A DNA stretch of 64,000 nucleotides from Candidatus Cloacimonadota bacterium (GTDB taxonomy: Bacteria > Cloacimonadota > Cloacimonadia > JGIOTU-2), in assembly GCA_049903315.1 (NCBI GenBank), contig JBNGBT010000004.1, positions 160,001-224,000 of the forward strand, in the 5' to 3' direction. This document shows, one piece after another, positions 53,525 through 61,477 of the stretch; positions within the stretch are counted from its first letter, which is position 1, and each line of letters begins with the position of its first letter. A program made the translations under genes and the position numbers. Below the pieces are notes generated by a model. That model searched no databases, was not told the origin of the DNA, and saw nothing but the letters and a program-made list of their open reading frames with translations.

Positions 53525-53581
53525 AGAACGTATAGAAATGTAGCACAAGATTCCGATCTTATGTAAGTAAAAGAGATAGTC

Positions 53582-53771
53582 GTTCATTTTCTCCTTGATG
53601 AGAAAACGAACCAAATGAATCACACGCTGATCAAGAAAACACTAAAATTTCATTCATTCAGCTAAAAGAAAAGAACTTATTCTTCCGACACTTCGGAAGA
53701 ATTCAAACAGCTTTCCTTTTTTAACACCTCATTCACAAAATTTCTTAACGTGTTTTCTTAATAGGCGGGAA
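53582..53771. repeat. 190-bp non-coding repeat B, copy 1 (MITE/REP-like)
   Basis: GTTCATTTTCTCCTTGATGAGAAAACGAACC...TTCTTCCGACACTTCGGAAGAA...TAGGCGGGAA; direct copy at 54052-54241. Confidence 0.9.
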
Positions 53772-54051
53772 TGGATAAGAAAAAATCAAATCCTCTCTAA
53801 ATAAGGGGAGTACGCCAACTGGCGGATACATCATCGCAGGTAAAGCCCAAAGAGATAGTTGCATAATTTAATAATGAAAATTCTAAAGAAGTAAAAATAC
53901 TCATGAATTTTAATCAATCGAAATTGAGAAATTATTGAAAAAGTAACGCATGATTCCAATCTTGCGCGATTCATAACTGAACTGAACACATTAATTATAA
54001 CGATGAGTCGGGTAAATAGTTGGAATTGAAATATAACTGAAAGATAATTAT

Positions 54052-54241
54052 GTTCATTTTCTCCTTGATGAGAAAACGAACCAAAAGAATCACCCGCTGA
54101 TCAAGAAAACACTAAAATTTCATTCATTCAGCTAAAAGAAAAGAACTTGTTCTTCCGACACTTCGGAAGAACTCAGACAGCTTTTCTTTTTAAACGCTTC
54201 ATTCACAAAATTTCTTAACGTATTTTCTTAATAGGCGGGAA
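54052..54241. repeat. 190-bp non-coding repeat B, copy 2
   Basis: Same length as copy 1 and highly similar, with scattered substitutions. Confidence 0.9.
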
Positions 54242-54359: not shown

Positions 54360-54919
54360 TTATTTATACAAATTTTTCATTCGCTGCAGAAGTTCATCAT
54401 TTTCAAGTAAGGCAACAGAATTTGTAATCTGATTTACTGATCCGATTTCAGATTTTATGTGCAGAATGGCTTTGTTCTTTATCTGTTTTTTTTATATGTC
54501 TTGCAAAAATTCCACCATTAATAACGAGATATGGTCTATCATAAAATTCAGTGACTTTAACTTTAAGGGGCTTGGTAATTTTTAAATTATTGTGCATGTG
54601 TGCAATACTTTCATATGCTTTCGAGAGATATTTTTCTCTTTCTTTCCAATTTTCAGAAGAGATAATTTTGTGGAAAAGAGGAGTGAGTTCTTTTGCTGAT
54701 CTTAATTGTGCCAAAGCAGTTCCAAACCATTTGCTGTAAGGCACATATTCTTTTTCCATTAAAAAGCAAAGTCTCATGAGTGACTGGACTAATCGAGCAG
54801 CAATAATGCGAGAACCTAACTCATCCTCCGCATCTCCGCATCTGCCGACAAAAGGTTCCTCTTCAGCAATGTTAGTCCATTCCGATGCAAGAAGGTAAAG
54901 CCAAATATCATGAGGATAA
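54360..54919 (-). pseudogene. 5'-truncated, frameshifted DUF4037-family gene fused to the last attC-like site
   Basis: YPHDIWLYLLASEW...EEPFVGRCGDAEDELGSR...YVPYSKWFGTA; an extra A in the A8 run (54486-54493) hides the natural end IGSVNQITNSVALLENDELLQRMKNLYK*. Confidence 0.8.
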
Positions 54920-55039
54920 TGTTTTGCGCATACGGCGGAATCAGCAGGATTCCGTCGTAAAACGAACAGCCAAACACCTGAGCCGGAAGGTTCAGGCAAA
55001 AAGCACTGACCAAACCAACTGACGACACGGCTGTTACAC
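54914..55039 (-). repeat. attC-like site 6 (distal)
   Basis: + strand GGATAAT-GTTTTGCGCATACGGC...CCTGAGCC-GGAA-GGTTCAGG...GACGACACGGCT-GTTACAC. Confidence 0.88.
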
Positions 55040-55162
55040 GAATTTTTAGTTATTAATCTCGAAAGAATTAGAAAAAAGCTAACCCTGGTAGCTGACTGGG
55101 ACAATGCCCCAGCCAACGACAGCACCTCGCTCTCCAAATAAATGGAGATCCAGGGAGTTGCT

Positions 55163-55981
55163 TTATTTTCTACGAATTTCATCTATTTGTTTTTTTGCGC
55201 AATGTTTTTTTTTCATCGAAAGACCATCACATATTTCAAAATTATCATTTCGCCATTCAATTTGATTGAAATTTGAAGTTCCTGGCACTTCTGAACCAAG
55301 GAAATACCTTTTATTATTATGAATAATGCCAAAATTTATCGAAGCAGAATCCGGTTTTCTATATAAACCAATTAGTTGTGGAGAACCTCCACAGTTTTTA
55401 TCTCTTATATTAAATAAAGTATCACAAAAACAATGAAAGACATTTCTACTGGTGCTTTTATTTACACCCTGTTGATATCTTTTGTAGTTCTCAATAAATT
55501 CTTGTCTACCAGAACCGAGAACAAATAGTAAATCTGATTGCATAGGCAAATTCATTGTTTCTCTTTTAGAAGTAATTGAGTTTGACCAAGTCATTTTATA
55601 ACATTTGAAATTAGGATAATTATTAACAATTGTGTCTCTGGTAATGTGCATTATGTTTACGATGTTACTTACCAATTTCGGATATTTTGAAAAAGAATGT
55701 GATATTTTTTCGAATACAAGTTTGTTTTTTTTATCACAATTTAGGGTTTTTGTAAAAAGAATATTGGAATCTATCATCTCGATTATTTGAGATAATACTA
55801 TTGATGGAAATAACACATCGCCAGAATAAGCTAATATTTCAGGATATTCTTTTGAGGAAAAAACTTTTTTACCATAATCAAATTTGGTTGTACTATTCCA
55901 TGTAAACCGGCTATCGCCAGCAATATATGCTGACGTTGGTCCGTGTGTGTCAACGCCTAACCAAGAAACGATTAAGGTCAC
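55163..55981 (-). CDS. Cassette 6: putative Ntn-hydrolase (proteasome-beta/HslV-like) protein
   Basis: GTG at 55981 after GGAG gives M-T-L-I-V...AGDSR: Thr2 and a DSR motif, later GSG and GGSPQ. Confidence 0.6.
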   Translation of the reverse strand: MTLIVSWLGVDTHGPTSAYIAGDSRFTWNSTTKFDYGKKVFSSKEYPEILAYSGDVLFPSIVLSQIIEMIDSNILFTKTLNCDKKNKLVFEKISHSFSKYPKLVSNIVNIMHITRDTIVNNYPNFKCYKMTWSNSITSKRETMNLPMQSDLLFVLGSGRQEFIENYKRYQQGVNKSTSRNVFHCFCDTLFNIRDKNCGGSPQLIGLYRKPDSASINFGIIHNNKRYFLGSEVPGTSNFNQIEWRNDNFEICDGLSMKKKHCAKKQIDEIRRK

Positions 55982-56009
55982 TTTTATCTCCAACTAATTA
56001 CAAAATTTC

Positions 56010-56133
56010 GTGTAATGTTTTGCGTGTGCGGCGGAATCAGAATGATTCAGCCGAGACAAACAGCCCAAACCCTGAACCGGAAGGTTCAGGACAGAAGCAC
56101 TGACCAGCCCTACAGCCGACACGCTTGTTAAGT
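56010..56133 (-). repeat. attC-like site 5
   Basis: GTGTAAT-GTTTTGCGTGTGCGGC...CCTGAACC-GGAA-GGTTCAGG...GCCGACACGCTT-GTTAAGT. Confidence 0.9.
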
Positions 56134-56136
56134 GCA

Positions 56137-57168
56137 TCAATCCAAAACATCTCTTCCACTTGTATAAGTAACTTCAATTGTTTCATTGAAAACTAATTTT
56201 TGGCTATCACTTGTAAATGATCTTGCAGAAGAAGCCGGAGTTTCAGATAATAATGTTATTTGATCAGTTACCATATCCCAAACCATGAATTTAGAGAACT
56301 CATCTATATAGGCAAGTTTATTTCCGTCAGGAGAGATTTTAGGAAAGGTTCCTGAGAATAAATGTGAAACGGAATAGTTAGATGTATTGAGTAGATAAAT
56401 TTCATCATCGTCCTCAAAAACAACTTTTGATCTATCTTCGCACATTGATAATTGTATTAAAAATCCTTCATAAATGTATTGATTATTAGTACCATCAGTA
56501 TTAATTACATAGATACCTGGTTCAGAGAAGTATTTGCCATTTACATAGATAAGAGTGTTTTCATCAATCCAATCAACAGATGAATATGAGTTTTCCGATG
56601 AAAATTCAGAATCAACTACTACATCGATGTAACCGTCTAAATTGCGAAATTTAAGTGACCAAAGAACACTGTCTGGTAGCTCAAAATAATGTTTCTGAAT
56701 ATATGCAAAATATTCATAATTTGGTGATGGTTTTACATAACCTTCTACGATAGAATCAGTATTTGTTAGAACCTCAACAGTTCCAGATTCAATCGAACCT
56801 AAATAAATGTCACAATCAATTGAAGTTGGACCCCAGAAGATTATTTTGTTTAAATTTGGGAACAACTCAAAATCACTAATATCGTAATTGGTTGTATCAG
56901 TTGGTAGGATAGTATTTATACTTAAAGTGTTTAAATCGAGTGAAACAATTTGATCATAAGGGTAACTAATCTTAGTTTTATGTAGGATTTTTGAGTTATT
57001 ATCATAAAAAATAGAATGTCCTGCACTATAATCTGTGAGTTGAATTTTGTTTGTACCATCGCAATTAATCATTGTTAGATAGTCATAATAGTAAGTTTCA
57101 GTTATTGGTTCACAACCAATTATAAATAGAACTAATACAACCGAAATGCTATAAGCTAAATATTTCAT
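56137..57168 (-). CDS. Cassette 5: TolB-like/PD40 beta-propeller lipoprotein
   Basis: Lipobox IIGC; repeats such as PKISPDGNKLAY, FTSDSQKLVF and IYVINTDGTN; stop codon lies inside the cassette inverted repeat. Confidence 0.75.
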   Translation of the reverse strand: MKYLAYSISVVLVLFIIGCEPITETYYYDYLTMINCDGTNKIQLTDYSAGHSIFYDNNSKILHKTKISYPYDQIVSLDLNTLSINTILPTDTTNYDISDFELFPNLNKIIFWGPTSIDCDIYLGSIESGTVEVLTNTDSIVEGYVKPSPNYEYFAYIQKHYFELPDSVLWSLKFRNLDGYIDVVVDSEFSSENSYSSVDWIDENTLIYVNGKYFSEPGIYVINTDGTNNQYIYEGFLIQLSMCEDRSKVVFEDDDEIYLLNTSNYSVSHLFSGTFPKISPDGNKLAYIDEFSKFMVWDMVTDQITLLSETPASSARSFTSDSQKLVFNETIEVTYTSGRDVLD

Positions 57169-57193
57169 TCCTTTTACTCCATACTTTTGATGC

Positions 57194-57317
57194 ACTTAAT
57201 GTCTTGCGTATGCGGCGGGATCAGAATGATCACGCCAAAACAACCAAGCAAACACCTGAGCCGGAAGGCTCAGGACAAAAGAACCGAAAAGCCCAACAGC
57301 CGATACGCCTGTTACAG
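57194..57317 (-). repeat. attC-like site 4
   Basis: ACTTAAT-GTCTTGCGTATGCGGC...CCTGAGCC-GGAA-GGCTCAGG...GCCGATACGCCT-GTTACAG. Confidence 0.9.
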
Positions 57318-57353
57318 GCAGTTTAAGATGAAATATTCTACACATAATTTAAA

Positions 57354-57866
57354 TCACCAGATATATTTGCATCTTACAAGGTATTTTACACCTTCATCAG
57401 TAACTGTATATGATTTTCGTCTTTTCTTATTAATAAATCCATCTAAATATCCATTATCTTTTAAATATCCAAATGCAATTAGTGTTTTAAGATATGCAGT
57501 TATTGTTGATTCTTTGAAACCTACCGCTTCGGCATATTTATCTTTAAAAAAACAAGGTGCTTCGTTCGTTAACAAAACAAATAAAAGTCTTCTTAGGTGT
57601 TTTTTATTTGGTAGTTTTAATTTACGATTTTTATATAAGCAAATAGAGGTGTAGACAAGTGATAGAATTACAAAACACATTAATATTATTGATAATCTCA
57701 ACATTGGTAGTGATATTTTACTGTGTAACGATAACTGCTGTAATAATTTTGAGAAAAATGGGAAAAATTGAAGACCTGAAGGAGATAAAATTGGGATTAC
57801 TATTTGTAGGATTGATACAATATCTCTCCATGTTAATTTGTTGTTATTTTTATCTTTTTCACTCAC
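57354..57866 (-). CDS. Cassette 4: membrane protein with C-terminal winged-helix-like domain
   Basis: Two hydrophobic segments, then YAEAVGFKESTITAYLKTLIAFGYL...YTVTDEGVKYL. Confidence 0.65.
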   Translation of the reverse strand: MSEKDKNNNKLTWRDIVSILQIVIPILSPSGLQFFPFFSKLLQQLSLHSKISLPMLRLSIILMCFVILSLVYTSICLYKNRKLKLPNKKHLRRLLFVLLTNEAPCFFKDKYAEAVGFKESTITAYLKTLIAFGYLKDNGYLDGFINKKRRKSYTVTDEGVKYLVRCKYIW

Positions 57867-57908
57867 TTCATCCTCTCAATTAAAACAATAAAAAAATACA
57901 GCAACTGC

Positions 57909-58034
57909 CTGTAATGTTTGGCGTGTGCGGCGGAATCAGAAGGATTCCGTCGTAAAACAAACAACCCAAACCCTGAACCGAAAGGTTCAGGCAAAACACA
58001 CCACGAAACCGAACAGCCGACACGCTTGTTAAAC
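57909..58034 (-). repeat. attC-like site 3
   Basis: CTGTAAT-GTTTGGCGTGTGCGGC...CCTGAACC-GAAA-GGTTCAGG...GCCGACACGCTT-GTTAAAC. Confidence 0.9.
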
Positions 58035-58061
58035 GCATATATCATAAAATTTCACCGAAAC

Positions 58062-58712
58062 TCAATTACGAAAATAATCTGAATCAGCCAAGATTATTTG
58101 CTTATTCGTATGAAAAATTCCTGTAACATTTGTATATATTTTTGAAATTACTGGTGGAGGATAATTTGTTTTAATTAAAAAAACAACCCAACCATTATTC
58201 TCACTAATTTGATTTCCTCTCCAGTTAAACTTTTTCCCATTATCATATAATCCTTTTCCACCTGTAAAATTAGAACTTGATCTTCGATACTCATAATTTA
58301 TTGAATCAACAGGTTGTTCAAATATTAGAGTAAATTCAAAATTATTAATTGGTTTTTTAGTAATGTTTTTGAAACCAAGCTCATAATATTTATTTGTATT
58401 TTGGTAGGGTTGAGGATTTTTAATTTTTTGATAGAACAATTCATATTTGGGAATAGAAACATTGTCTTCAGAGTTTTCAAAATTGTAGTTAATTATTACA
58501 TCACTATTATCACCTTCCGTTGAAATTGCAGGTGAGAAAGAACCATCTGTAGTATTATGTATTTCCTTATACTCATCTTCTTTTGGATTAATAATGAATT
58601 TAGTTACCAGAGTTAATGCGAATGATATTATTGCTAAATAAGATACAAAGACAGTTATCTTTGTTGGAAAACTCCAAGCTTTCCATTGTTTTCTTGAAGG
58701 AATAAATTTCAT
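58062..58712 (-). CDS. Cassette 3: hypothetical protein with N-terminal TM anchor
   Basis: 216-aa ORF filling the cassette; one hydrophobic helix near the N-terminus. Confidence 0.75.
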   Translation of the reverse strand: MKFIPSRKQWKAWSFPTKITVFVSYLAIISFALTLVTKFIINPKEDEYKEIHNTTDGSFSPAISTEGDNSDVIINYNFENSEDNVSIPKYELFYQKIKNPQPYQNTNKYYELGFKNITKKPINNFEFTLIFEQPVDSINYEYRRSSSNFTGGKGLYDNGKKFNWRGNQISENNGWVVFLIKTNYPPPVISKIYTNVTGIFHTNKQIILADSDYFRN

Positions 58713-58746
58713 TTATCAACCCCACAAAACTCAATAATTAATATGC

Positions 58747-58871
58747 GTTTAATGTTTTGCGTGTGCGGTGTGATCGGAACGATCACGCCAACCCAAACAA
58801 ACCAGCCGTTTGAATCGTAAGATTCAAACAAAGAGCACTGACCAACCCGAACAACGACACGCCTGTTAGGC
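58747..58871 (-). repeat. attC-like site 2
   Basis: GTTTAAT-GTTTTGCGTGTGCGGT...GTTTGAATC-GTAA-GATTCAAAC...ACGACACGCCT-GTTAGGC. Confidence 0.9.
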
Positions 58872-58880
58872 ACATTTTAC

Positions 58881-59522
58881 TTATGTAGAAAAATCAAGTT
58901 CCTGAGATCTTGTATATGATTGTGCTCTGGGAATTGATATTGGTATATTCTGAATTATGGGATTATTTTTTTGAGGTTCATAAATTATTGATAAATCAGC
59001 ATTAACAGGTAACAAATTGGAACTAATTTCATGTGTTAAACCATAGTCTTTTGCTTCAGTCGGATTAAGTGTAGTTCGATTATTCATGTCCTCGAATATT
59101 TTATCGGTTGATTTTCCTGTATTGTCAGCTATAACTCTTGCAATATTTAATTGATCAATTTTTAATCCATTTAAGTGTTCTTCTATTTGCTTTTCGTCTA
59201 AGCTAACGTTACCATTGAAATTAAATCTTACTCCATGAAGAAGGAACCTTGAGTGGGGAACTGAAAAACGTTTTTCTCCAGCGCAATAAATTACAACACC
59301 AATTGAATCAACGCTACCAAAATTATACGTGTCAATTTTTATTGGAGCTCCTTTGAGATAGTTATAAATGGACAGACCATGAAAGACAGAACCTCCTGGA
59401 GAAGAAATCATTAAATGTAGTTTTTCAAATTTTTGAGCGATTTTTTGATCAATTATCCGTAATAGTTGATCACTTGTTTGCGGAATTACGGGAGCCATAA
59501 ATCTAATGTAACATTCTTTCAT
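58881..59522 (-). CDS. Cassette 2: ClpP-family serine peptidase
   Basis: ISSPGGSV, VDSIG (Ser), RFLLHG (His), EAKDYGL. Confidence 0.85.
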   Translation of the reverse strand: MKECYIRFMAPVIPQTSDQLLRIIDQKIAQKFEKLHLMISSPGGSVFHGLSIYNYLKGAPIKIDTYNFGSVDSIGVVIYCAGEKRFSVPHSRFLLHGVRFNFNGNVSLDEKQIEEHLNGLKIDQLNIARVIADNTGKSTDKIFEDMNNRTTLNPTEAKDYGLTHEISSNLLPVNADLSIIYEPQKNNPIIQNIPISIPRAQSYTRSQELDFST

Positions 59523-59553
59523 TTTACTTTACCTCCAATTTTTTTTTAAATGT

Positions 59554-59679
59554 GCCTAATGTTTGGCGTGTGCGACGGGATCGGAACGATCACGCCCAAA
59601 ACAAACCGACCAGCCGTTTGAATCGGAAGATTCAAACAAAGAGCACTGACCAACCCTACTGCCGACACGCTTGTTAGCT
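59554..59679 (-). repeat. attC-like site 1 (proximal)
   Basis: GCCTAAT-GTTTGGCGTGTGCGAC...GTTTGAATC-GGAA-GATTCAAAC...GCCGACACGCTT-GTTAGCT. Confidence 0.9.
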
Positions 59680-59774
59680 ACATCTTTTTCTATTTCAATT
59701 ACTTACATTTTAAACTTATTTAAGTAAAGAATTTTATTGTTGTTCTTGGATAAATGGGTGTCATAATTAATTCT

Positions 59775-60248
59775 TCATTTTTTTATCTGAAACCATTCTG
59801 ATTCAATTTTACCTTGTGGATAAAAACCTTTGTAAGGCGACCCAGGCATATTTATAAATGGCGAGTGCATATATATAATGTCTCCAATTAATTTAAAGCT
59901 ATATTTGCCTTTGATTGGGGCAATTACTTTATATTTGTCAGGATAATTGAAAATTGTGAAACCCTGTTTAGTCGGTAATAAACGTTTTTTTTTGAGCTTA
60001 TTATTTTCATTTTTATAAAGAATAAAAAGATTTGACGAATAATAAAAATCAGGATTATCAATTCCTTTAATATCTACAGAAAAAGTTAGAGTATCTAATT
60101 TTGTGGAAATGTCAGAAGTTATTAAAGAAATACTTCTATGTTTATAAAGATTCGAGATATAATTATAACTTACTTTAGTATTGAAGTTATATGCACATGA
60201 AGATAACAAAAATAAGAAACACGCTGATTTTAATAATTTTATTAGCAT
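59775..60248 (-). CDS. Cassette 1: hypothetical lipoprotein
   Basis: Lipobox LSSC after a short signal peptide; very AT-rich. Confidence 0.7.
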   Translation of the reverse strand: MLIKLLKSACFLFLLSSCAYNFNTKVSYNYISNLYKHRSISLITSDISTKLDTLTFSVDIKGIDNPDFYYSSNLFILYKNENNKLKKKRLLPTKQGFTIFNYPDKYKVIAPIKGKYSFKLIGDIIYMHSPFINMPGSPYKGFYPQGKIESEWFQIKK

Positions 60249-60299
60249 ATTATTAACCTAAAAATATTTTCCAATTCTCCATCCATTTCATTTAGATGT

Positions 60300-60400
60300 A
60301 GCTAATGTTTGTATACCCGACCAAAAGGTCGTGTATATTACGATTAAATTTCCTATAAGGTCGTATACAATACAATATATAAGTTATATACGAACTTGTT
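60300..60400 (-). other. attI-like recombination site
   Basis: Shares TAATGTTTG with the repeats, then diverges into palindrome TAAT-N5-TATACCCGACC-AAAA-GGTCGTGTATA-N5-ATTA, plus inverted pair AAGGTCGTATA / TATACGAACTT. Confidence 0.65.
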
Positions 60401-60412
60401 TTAATTATGAAA

Positions 60413-61477
60413 TTATGTTTCATCTAACTTCAAATTATCCAATGGACTTTTAATTTTGTTTCTTGCTGTATGTGTAACATGGGTATATATCTCTGTTGTT
60501 CTTGAGCTTTTGTGCCCTAAAAGTTCTTGAATATACCTCAAATCAGTCCCATGCTCCAATAAATGAGTAGCAAAACTATGCCGTAAAGTATGTATTGAAG
60601 CATGTTTCTTTACTCCAGATTTGTTTACAGCTGCTTTAAATAATTTTTGTATTACTCTCCTACTGAATTGTTCTCCGTATTTGCTTTCAAACAGCCATTT
60701 CTTTGGTTTATAAACCTTATAATATGTTCTTAGTAAATCTAATACGGTATCTGAAAGAATGCCGTATCTATCCTTGTTGCCTTTTGCGCTTCGAATAAAT
60801 ATCTGTTTTCGATCAGAATGAATGTCGGATATTCTCAAATGTACAACTTCTGTTAAACGTAATCCTGCAGAATAGATCAAATAGATAATACATTTATATT
60901 TCAGGTTCTTGACCTGTTTCAATATTTTTGTTACTTCTTCCTCGCTTAGAACTTCCGGTAGCTTTTTTTCTTTTCTTGGTCGAGGAACGTAATATTTTTC
61001 AACAGGTTTTCCCAGCACTTTTTCATAATAAAACTTTATACTGTTTATTGCTTGATTCTGTGCAGAAGTGGAATATTTCTTCTTATCTACCAGGTATAAC
61101 AAATATTTACGGATCTGTTCATGTGTGATATCTTTCAATTTAGTGTTTTGATAATATTTTAAAAACCGCTGAAAATGAAGACGATAAGTTTTAATGGTTG
61201 CGTCACTATAGTTTTTCAATTTCAAAGTTTCAATGTATTCAGAAGGGAAATCTAGTTTTGTATCAGTATCTTCTATGAATTCTAATTTACCTTTGAATTT
61301 CGTATGTAAAACACTAATGATATTTTTTTGATAGGGGATATGCCAGAACTTATTTGAAGCAGACCACTTTCTGCCTTCTATCTGTTTAATCTGTCTAATC
61401 GTATTTATGTCATAATCAAACAGTAGAGCAATACGTCTCTGCTTATCAATCAAATATTCCTTAGTCTTTATCTGCAT
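60413..61477 (-). CDS. Tyrosine recombinase, integron-integrase-related (N-terminal extension + SAM-like + catalytic domain), lacking the IntI insertion
   Basis: YSAGLR, AKGNKDR, HTLRHSFATHLLE, IQELLGH, TTEIYTHV, SPLD tail; catalytic R-K-H-R-H-Y all present. Confidence 0.93.
   Translation of the reverse strand: MQIKTKEYLIDKQRRIALLFDYDINTIRQIKQIEGRKWSASNKFWHIPYQKNIISVLHTKFKGKLEFIEDTDTKLDFPSEYIETLKLKNYSDATIKTYRLHFQRFLKYYQNTKLKDITHEQIRKYLLYLVDKKKYSTSAQNQAINSIKFYYEKVLGKPVEKYYVPRPRKEKKLPEVLSEEEVTKILKQVKNLKYKCIIYLIYSAGLRLTEVVHLRISDIHSDRKQIFIRSAKGNKDRYGILSDTVLDLLRTYYKVYKPKKWLFESKYGEQFSRRVIQKLFKAAVNKSGVKKHASIHTLRHSFATHLLEHGTDLRYIQELLGHKSSRTTEIYTHVTHTARNKIKSPLDNLKLDET

Follow-up and report, generated by a model that had tools for sequence, protein, structure and literature searches.

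The 64,000-nucleotide stretch of DNA analysed here (the window; positions 160,001 to 224,000 of contig JBNGBT010000004.1 from a Candidatus Cloacimonadota bacterium) contains a tyrosine recombinase gene followed by an attI-like site and an array of six single-gene cassettes. In all likelihood the locus is a cassette platform that is sedentary, resembles an integron, and belongs to the rAID-1 type, this being the best explanation of its features. Each cassette is bracketed by its own pair of complementary arms, and these arms make up the outer stem of an attC-like hairpin, split in two. With the same high confidence, we propose that a circular cassette, as a folded single strand, is inserted by the recombinase at R|TTA in double-stranded attI. 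Sequence comparison across genomes establishes that the units move whole, that they begin at the core, and that they occupy either attI or internal positions in different genomes. The features of the locus are as follows.

60413..61477, minus strand: tyrosine recombinase of 354 amino acids (PF00589 and PF13495), pointing the same way as the cassettes
60303..60396, minus strand: attI-like site, ending ...TACAAAC A|TTA, with no repeat arm upstream of the core
59560..60305, minus strand: cassette 1; open reading frame (ORF) 59775-60248; arms 60294-60306 and 59673-59685; repeat 59558-59675
58753..59559, minus strand: cassette 2; ORF 58881-59522; arms 59548-59560 and 58865-58877; repeat 58751-58867
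57915..58752, minus strand: cassette 3; ORF 58062-58712; arms 58741-58753 and 58028-58040; repeat 57913-58030
57200..57914, minus strand: cassette 4; ORF 57354-57866; arms 57903-57915 and 57311-57323; repeat 57198-57313
56016..57199, minus strand: cassette 5; ORF 56137-57195; arms 57187-57200 and 56127-56140; repeat 56014-56129
54920..56015, minus strand: cassette 6; ORF 55163-55993; arms 56007-56016 and 55033-55042; repeat 54918-55035
54448..54918, minus strand: 3' fragment of a DUF4037 gene (PF13228 from profile position 33), starting at the A|TTA of the last repeat

The six cassette genes and the recombinase gene all lie on the minus strand, and the GC content of the array is 31-34%, against about 39% in the surrounding DNA. 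Read on the gene strand, each unit consists of A|TTA plus 9-10 nucleotides (nt), one gene, the complement of that start followed by TAAC, and a repeat of 116-118 base pairs (bp) ending CAAAC-A. The first cassette directly follows the attI-like stretch, which is the genome's only match (E 3e-10) to a profile made from the DNA behind eight related integrases; its motif also occurs behind the integrases of close relatives.

Matching ends and the unit that moves

All six pairs of ends listed in the first-pass annotation of this DNA were found where it had placed them, and the pattern it described, in which ends match across a gene and not across a repeat, holds for every cassette. From cassette 6 to cassette 1 the perfect run after the first base, across the cassette's own gene, is 9, 13, 12, 12, 12, and 12 nt, whereas the remaining 36 of the 42 left/right pairings, including every pairing across a repeat, give 3-5 nt. 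The true assignment of left to right ends ranks best of 720 permutations (score 53, next 48). Genome-wide, just 46 of 61,223 GTTA..TAAT pairs at 550-1100 nt spacing reach at least 9 nt, the six cassettes included. The annotation had further expected a fully paired outer stem. The stem does pair over 9-13 nt, but its outermost position is mismatched (G/T on the plus strand and A/C on the gene strand, neither Watson-Crick) and the inner site has a 5x2 loop. Likewise, the arms are private to each cassette within the window's array, but three of their six cores are also found in relatives' cassettes (in L146; in L162 and L197; and in L170; L numbers denote loci, G numbers relatives' genomes, and G000 the window's own genome). 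The genes of those cassettes give no tblastn match to the window's cassette proteins.

The pairing extends through the family, in which 13 of 20 genomes carry the repeat and 8 of 20 the integrase. A first family-wide scan based on inverted repeats alone found no enrichment (117 downstream versus 116 on the opposite strand); bare inverted repeats are common by chance, and later tests therefore fixed the sites from their inner context. With ends called from inner context alone, positions 5-13 of 40 family cassettes pair at 0.52-0.92 with their own partners and at 0.30-0.60 in cross pairs, and the observed own-pair sum was reached by none of 20,000 permutations; five of the 40 come from the window's genome, and kin are not independent. 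Pairing across the own gene was also seen for 27 own pairs in 8 of 81 integrase loci with two or more inner-defined sites (mostly Bacteroidota), and the arrays among them other than the window's have a conserved A/C mismatch at position 11. Bacteroidota-type cassettes (L028, L050, L068, L012, and L019) combine this mismatch at arm position 11 with G|TT cores. In the window the A/C mismatch sits at the core, and both mismatches give G.T on the strand opposite the gene.

The evidence for mobility is stronger from comparison across genomes than from the repeats themselves. A cassette X (92.5% identity over 1558 bp) occupies an internal position in G008 and the first position after attI in G004, the two copies aligning from AC|ATTA. 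A second cassette is shared at 95.6% by G001 and G009. Its neighbours differ on either side, and both copies carry the same unusual short repeat. Cassette 6 of the window occurs at 87% in two metagenome contexts with other neighbours, L202/L203 and L204; in L204 the alignment spans query positions 393-1385, cassette 6 occupying 401-1384, and the arms are the same. Homologues of cassette 6 were found at 17 loci, of which 15 were scanned and 13 gave rows: L204 and L215 have arms, L202/L203 (whose overlap is identical) have decayed ones, and nine have none. Between L158 and L183 the arms have changed on both sides, and the 3' parts also differ in length. Between LUD and dnaX, G008 has an empty slot and G009 about 2 kb in which no sites were detected, while G004 and G001 have an attI with an integrase remnant plus other DNA. 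Several attI-plus-cassette sites per genome were noted in relatives (L144-L180, L197, and L198). No whole integrase lies upstream of any of 21 such sites, and only its 3' end was found, in 8 of the 21.

The position of the cut can be read from the base before TTA, which is G at 7 of 29 attI-type sites and at 2 of 56 repeat ends (Fisher p 0.007, with patterns that were written after the sites were seen and kin that are not independent). The base therefore belongs to the target, and the cut lies 3' of it. Homologous cassettes likewise start aligning at the core. An attI-like insertion point after the first base of RTT is present in the window, the base being A here and G in those seven relatives, and the cores of 51 called family sites read ATTA in 48 cases, GTTA in two, and ATTG in one.

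A seventh copy of the repeat in the genome, on contig C69, follows a single DUF4238 gene with its own 13-nt arms (G000:C69:12213-13379, equal to L001:3214-4380; PADLOC DUF4238-Pers, E 1e-53; no integrase). Its left flank is homologous to the attI regions of relatives (46 bp at 87% and 147 bp at 74%) and lies below detection by the attI profile; a random secondary-site insertion was considered for this cassette and dropped, as the flank is attI-derived. Within the window, the repeat of cassette 4 (57198-57313) shows a two-sided inner-stem change, GCGTAT/ATACGC, contained inside the repeat itself. Together, the cut position, the C69 cassette, and this self-contained change identify the cassette as a gene plus its downstream repeat. 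The first-pass proposal that such a unit is opened at the core is borne out by the base before TTA and by the alignments that begin there. Elsewhere on C69, an 18-nt perfect inverted repeat with copies 2.4 kb apart (G000:C69:125971-128377) probably represents insertion sequence ends.

The proposed folded site and the recombinase

When each cassette is joined in silico at A|TT, as the first-pass annotation had suggested, the outer stem closes in all six. The predicted pair probability of this stem is 0.99-1.0 in the joined circle versus 0-0.09 in the array, and the joined circles are 3.6-8.7 kcal/mol more stable. Inside the stem, the loop is 2x5 in all five window repeats listed. Among 33 rows of family sites, which include four opposite-strand duplicates, 20 have a 3' arm that is 3 nt longer, and 19 have an extra C on the 3' (R') arm of the gene strand. 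At the other loci, mostly Bacteroidota, 34 of 46 rows show the 3-nt offset, with most sites read on both strands. The inner stems hold the same geometry at a fixed offset despite unrelated sequences, which is covariation. Classical attC sites, as characterised in the consulted portions of two papers (PMC5027507; PMC2727003), have an AAC/GTT triplet pair and, on each arm, 5-6 nt, with their extra bases located on the R''-L'' arm. All six window cassettes have AAC..ATT, so the AAC/GTT pair is missing, and neither the unpaired spacer of 5-6 nt per arm nor the extra bases on the R''-L'' arm are found.

This anatomy bears on whether the site recombines as ordinary double-stranded DNA in the manner of Xer/dif, with the arms serving as two conventional binding arms and the hairpin irrelevant. 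The arms do have the length of a recombinase binding arm, they share a loose consensus at positions 2-4 and 8-10, and the enzyme is colinear with XerA. They are, however, 116-118 bp apart in the circle rather than 6-8 bp, their complementarity is far above what the consensus yields, and the inner stems covary at a fixed offset with unrelated sequences. We regard this as the least probable account of the site.

The best NCBIfam match of the window recombinase is TIGR02249 (227.9 bits in two stretches, under the cutoff of 265), and its best structure match is IntI4, tied with XerA. In the comparison with IntI4, residues 249 to 271 of the query correspond to its residues 177 to 242, so that patch III is spanned in about 21 residues versus about 64, some 43 fewer. 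The IntI insertion is therefore absent, and the enzyme is colinear with archaeal XerA. Residues R207, K232, H296, R299, H322, and Y331, which we take to be catalytic, are invariant in 38 relatives. The closest integrases (73-79% identical) come mostly from Cloacimonadota metagenome-assembled genomes and the next ones mostly from Bacteroidota. Within the window's genome it is the only close recombinase, three other tyrosine recombinase matches being 29-38% identical. In one relative (G053; L102 and L108), two recombinase genes of this family stand in tandem, on two contigs.

The locus could alternatively be a canonical integron, either with a divergent or decayed IntI or with an IntI encoded elsewhere and acting in trans. 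The TIGR02249 match and the tie of IntI4 with XerA are in keeping with this, as is the extended pairing, which is a trait of classical cassettes. Yet the insertion is absent and the catalytic positions are intact, the other three recombinase matches are only 29-38% identical (they were compared by identity only), and the loop and extra-base geometry is unlike that of attC. We consider a canonical integron very improbable.

The recombinase also has an extra N-terminal domain of about 70 amino acids with a confidently predicted fold (pLDDT 92). Pfam HARP is matched in this region in 14 of 30 family members, and Foldseek returned nothing for the domain at E 0.001 or below. HARP binds junctions between single- and double-stranded DNA.

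Given a locus of the rAID-1 type, recombination would proceed as follows. One strand of the excised circle would fold into an outer stem of 12-13 bp, formed by the private repeat, with a T.G wobble at the core. Further inside would lie the 5x2 loop and a 6-bp stem bearing an additional G, and the fold would end in two hairpins. As a double-stranded arm, the outer stem would be bound by the tyrosine recombinase. By analogy with IntI, a single strand exchange would occur at AA|T, on the strand opposite the gene and into double-stranded attI, to be resolved by replication. Insertion would split the stem and leave one half on each side of the gene, hence the complementary halves that flank each gene, and selection at each insertion may keep the halves complementary while their sequence drifts. 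More speculatively, recognition of the folded strand, with the I2 helix missing, might fall to the HARP-like N-terminal domain, and excision might be rarer than insertion because the outer ends pair poorly (3-5 nt) within the array.

Several observations weigh against this proposal. Folding energies do not favour the strand opposite the gene (in four of six circles the gene strand is lower), and only about half of the circles contain the inner 6-bp stem in their lowest-energy fold. Pfam HARP was not detected in the window's own recombinase, and the fold matches of its N-terminal domain are weak (UvsW Z 6.1 and XPB Z 5.0). A search for circle junctions, one of the checks named in the first-pass annotation, found no circle or excision joint at the core in the contigs of four runs, which may be the source DNA; contigs drop rare variants and cannot show rare circles. 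Reads gave three mid-repeat joints of low depth with foreign letters, which probably come from other organisms. Among 13 relative loci, none showed the C69 cassette's site empty. The cassette 6 gene has nine more distant homologues that lack arms, from which it follows that this gene family also lives outside cassettes. The downstream repeats of cassette X are unrelated in G008 and G004, cassette Y carries three different ones, and the L202 repeat is equally near the window's repeat 1 (0.64) and repeat 4 (0.65). Finally, the annotation had named the same genes with these flanks but no repeat as a finding that would contradict it, and this was seen once: L204 has both arms and no family repeat behind the gene. 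Decay at array ends and recombination between similar repeats may account for the turnover of repeats, and L204 may be a broken array end.

These same homologues invite a different definition of the unit, in which the arms are terminal inverted repeats of the transposon kind, the unit comprises the gene and its arms, perhaps with a half-repeat at either end, and the repeats themselves are part of the array. It would accommodate the differing downstream repeats of the X, Y, and L202 homologues, the missing repeat of L204, and a repeat in L173/L181 that bears arms of two types. On the other hand, first cassettes follow attI, which has no repeat arm; the repeat at 57198-57313 changed on both sides within itself and not across a gene; and L173 and L181 have a common downstream repeat and a different upstream one. 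Moreover, the genome's only close recombinase is a tyrosine recombinase, and repeat turnover can arise by recombination between similar repeats. We judge this definition improbable.

Relation to integrons and rAID-1

The pattern of matched ends is a textbook expectation for integrons and not a new mechanism. Most classical cassettes pair with themselves past the R boxes, to 9-11 nt, according to the consulted part of PMC2727003; on that published account, matched ends are a known trait that is slightly longer here. By themselves they would not surprise an integron specialist. Their value is as a marker of a non-IntI platform, since the private ends delimit cassettes without any attC model. Like canonical integrons, the window has a tyrosine recombinase with attI next to it, cassettes of one gene each with a hairpin downstream, a crossover after the first base of RTT, and starts and ends that are complementary beyond the R boxes. 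Its recombinase is co-oriented with the cassettes, as in Treponema integrons, where the part of PMC3607928 consulted describes an integrase pointing towards the cassettes. It differs from canonical integrons in an enzyme without the IntI insertion and with an extra N-terminal domain. That insertion (the I2 helix, about 35 amino acids near patch III) is the defining mark of IntI in the portions consulted of three sources (PMC4889954; PMC8138268; bioRxiv 2022.02.06.479319). Where attC has the pair AAC/GTT, the site has an A|TT core with an AAC/ATT mismatch; its loop is 2x5, and its extra base sits on the R' arm rather than the R''-L'' arm. Cassettes without an intact integrase, as in the relatives' sites and on C69, recall CALIN as presented in the consulted part of PMC4889954, except that the relatives' sites keep an attI-like end and carry the family repeat rather than a classical attC.

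The nearest match among described systems is rAID-1 of Bacteroidales (bioRxiv 10.1101/471110, restated in PMC13633076; both consulted in part). Its clusters comprise a 5' XerD-like recombinase, co-directional low-GC genes, and repeated intergenic sequences. The criteria in the consulted portion of the former text are a recombinase more than 44% identical to BF9343_RS08045 and at least two co-directional downstream genes with GC of at most 41%; that portion does not give the site structure, the crossover, or cassette movement. On this description the window is alike, with six co-directional genes of GC 0.31-0.34 and repetitive intergenic sequences. Its recombinase is 48% identical over 279 amino acids to the recombinase of a Bacteroides ovatus immunity cluster (L200), a comparison made with that protein and not with the reference BF9343_RS08045. 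The cluster itself, on a B. ovatus plasmid (L200:7731-16300; NZ_CP081918.1), is of rAID-1 type and has A|TTA cores and repeats of about 45 bp. A best-pair scan, which is biased upward, found A|TTA..TAAC/T ends pairing over 8-9 nt around 10 of the 14 following genes, and all ten fell on repeat ends that had not been supplied to the scan; a strict inner-stem filter on the same locus left only two pairs. The window differs from rAID-1 in phylum, in lacking immunity-gene cargo, and in repeats of 116-118 bp rather than about 45 bp, and its arms measure 9-13 nt against 8-9 nt in the B. ovatus cluster. The window thus works like an integron, lacks three features of IntI and attC, and shares the design of rAID-1 without its cargo or host. 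A literature search, with subscription journals mostly outside its coverage, found no paper describing this site anatomy.

The matched ends also show that real, shuffled cassette arrays are headed by recombinases without the IntI insertion. A broader interpretation, which is possible and which we put forward tentatively, would make these loci a second cassette system that works through single strands, alongside IntI integrons; it would be widespread in Bacteroidota and Cloacimonadota and escape tools based on IntI and attC. There, the classical signals would be replaced by a long cassette-specific stem, a G.T wobble, and a 2x5 loop, read by an I2-less recombinase with a HARP-like domain. The system would include reusable carrier ends with nested unrelated genes, offering a handle on the origin of cassettes, and would be the platform on which tet(X3) was first captured. 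If the proposed recombination mechanism holds, the I2 helix would not be the sole solution to hairpin recombination, rAID-1 would gain a testable mechanism, and gene capture would be undercounted in these phyla. The window offers a clean substrate set of one intact enzyme, one attI, and six sites.

Cassette cargo, possible carrier ends, and neighbouring DNA

Five of 26 strictly called cassettes of relatives (L144, L159, L147, L174, and L204) have the same arms and a homologous leader and trailer around four unrelated genes; starts of this type also occur in L163, L145, L009, L224, and L226. The shared leader is about 45-100 nt long and contains a TTGAC motif, and the shared trailer is 73-75 nt. 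An inner attC-like end lies 73-75 nt before the outer end in four of the five, with a matching inner start in one, which suggests cassettes nested in a reusable carrier. The idea that unrelated genes swapped inside shared ends reflect cassette genesis is weakened by these inner ends. The window's genome showed no copy of this carrier. A 5'-shortened relative of the recombinase (56.5%; annotated as TnpF in one record) precedes tet(X3) on Acinetobacter plasmids. The resistance gene lies between an attI-like GTTA and TAAC plus a repeat start, with imperfect arms (L199:3986-6060; NZ_CP041297.1), a position as expected for a first-position cassette.

The products of the window's cassettes are varied. 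Cassette 1 encodes a 157-amino acid protein with a lipoprotein-like start that matched no family, cassette 2 a ClpP-like protein (PF00574), and cassette 3 a protein of 216 amino acids that matched no family. Cassette 4 encodes 170 amino acids with weak winged-helix matches, cassette 5 a TolB-like beta-propeller by a weak match, and the cassette 6 ORF matched no family. The ClpP-like gene has one homologue in 231 other genomes, and no cassette ends were seen there. Profile searches and PADLOC found no immunity family among the six proteins, PADLOC gave no convincing match for any of them, and ESM Atlas returned only unnamed clusters, under 0.9. Nothing in Rfam came near gathering scores. A search for a Pc promoter upstream of attI found two sigma-70-like sites at the integrase end, and six in all against 7.3 expected by chance.

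At the far end of the array the repeat of cassette 6 has a decayed inner stem. A plasmid homologue of the DUF4037 fragment behind it extends 68 residues further upstream, and no other copy of the fragment was found in the genome or in 20 family genomes; its edge at the last repeat is probably a secondary-site junction. An open frame (54448-55182) runs from inside cassette 6 across the repeat and into this fragment. Between the array and dnaX lies a 211-bp direct repeat (91%; window 53561-53771 and 54031-54241), and similar sequences occur elsewhere in the genome and in relatives. The attI region at 60310-60400 contains several CGAC/GAAC-TATA motifs, direct and inverted, which are candidate extra recombinase-binding sites, and a small hairpin at 60318-60331.

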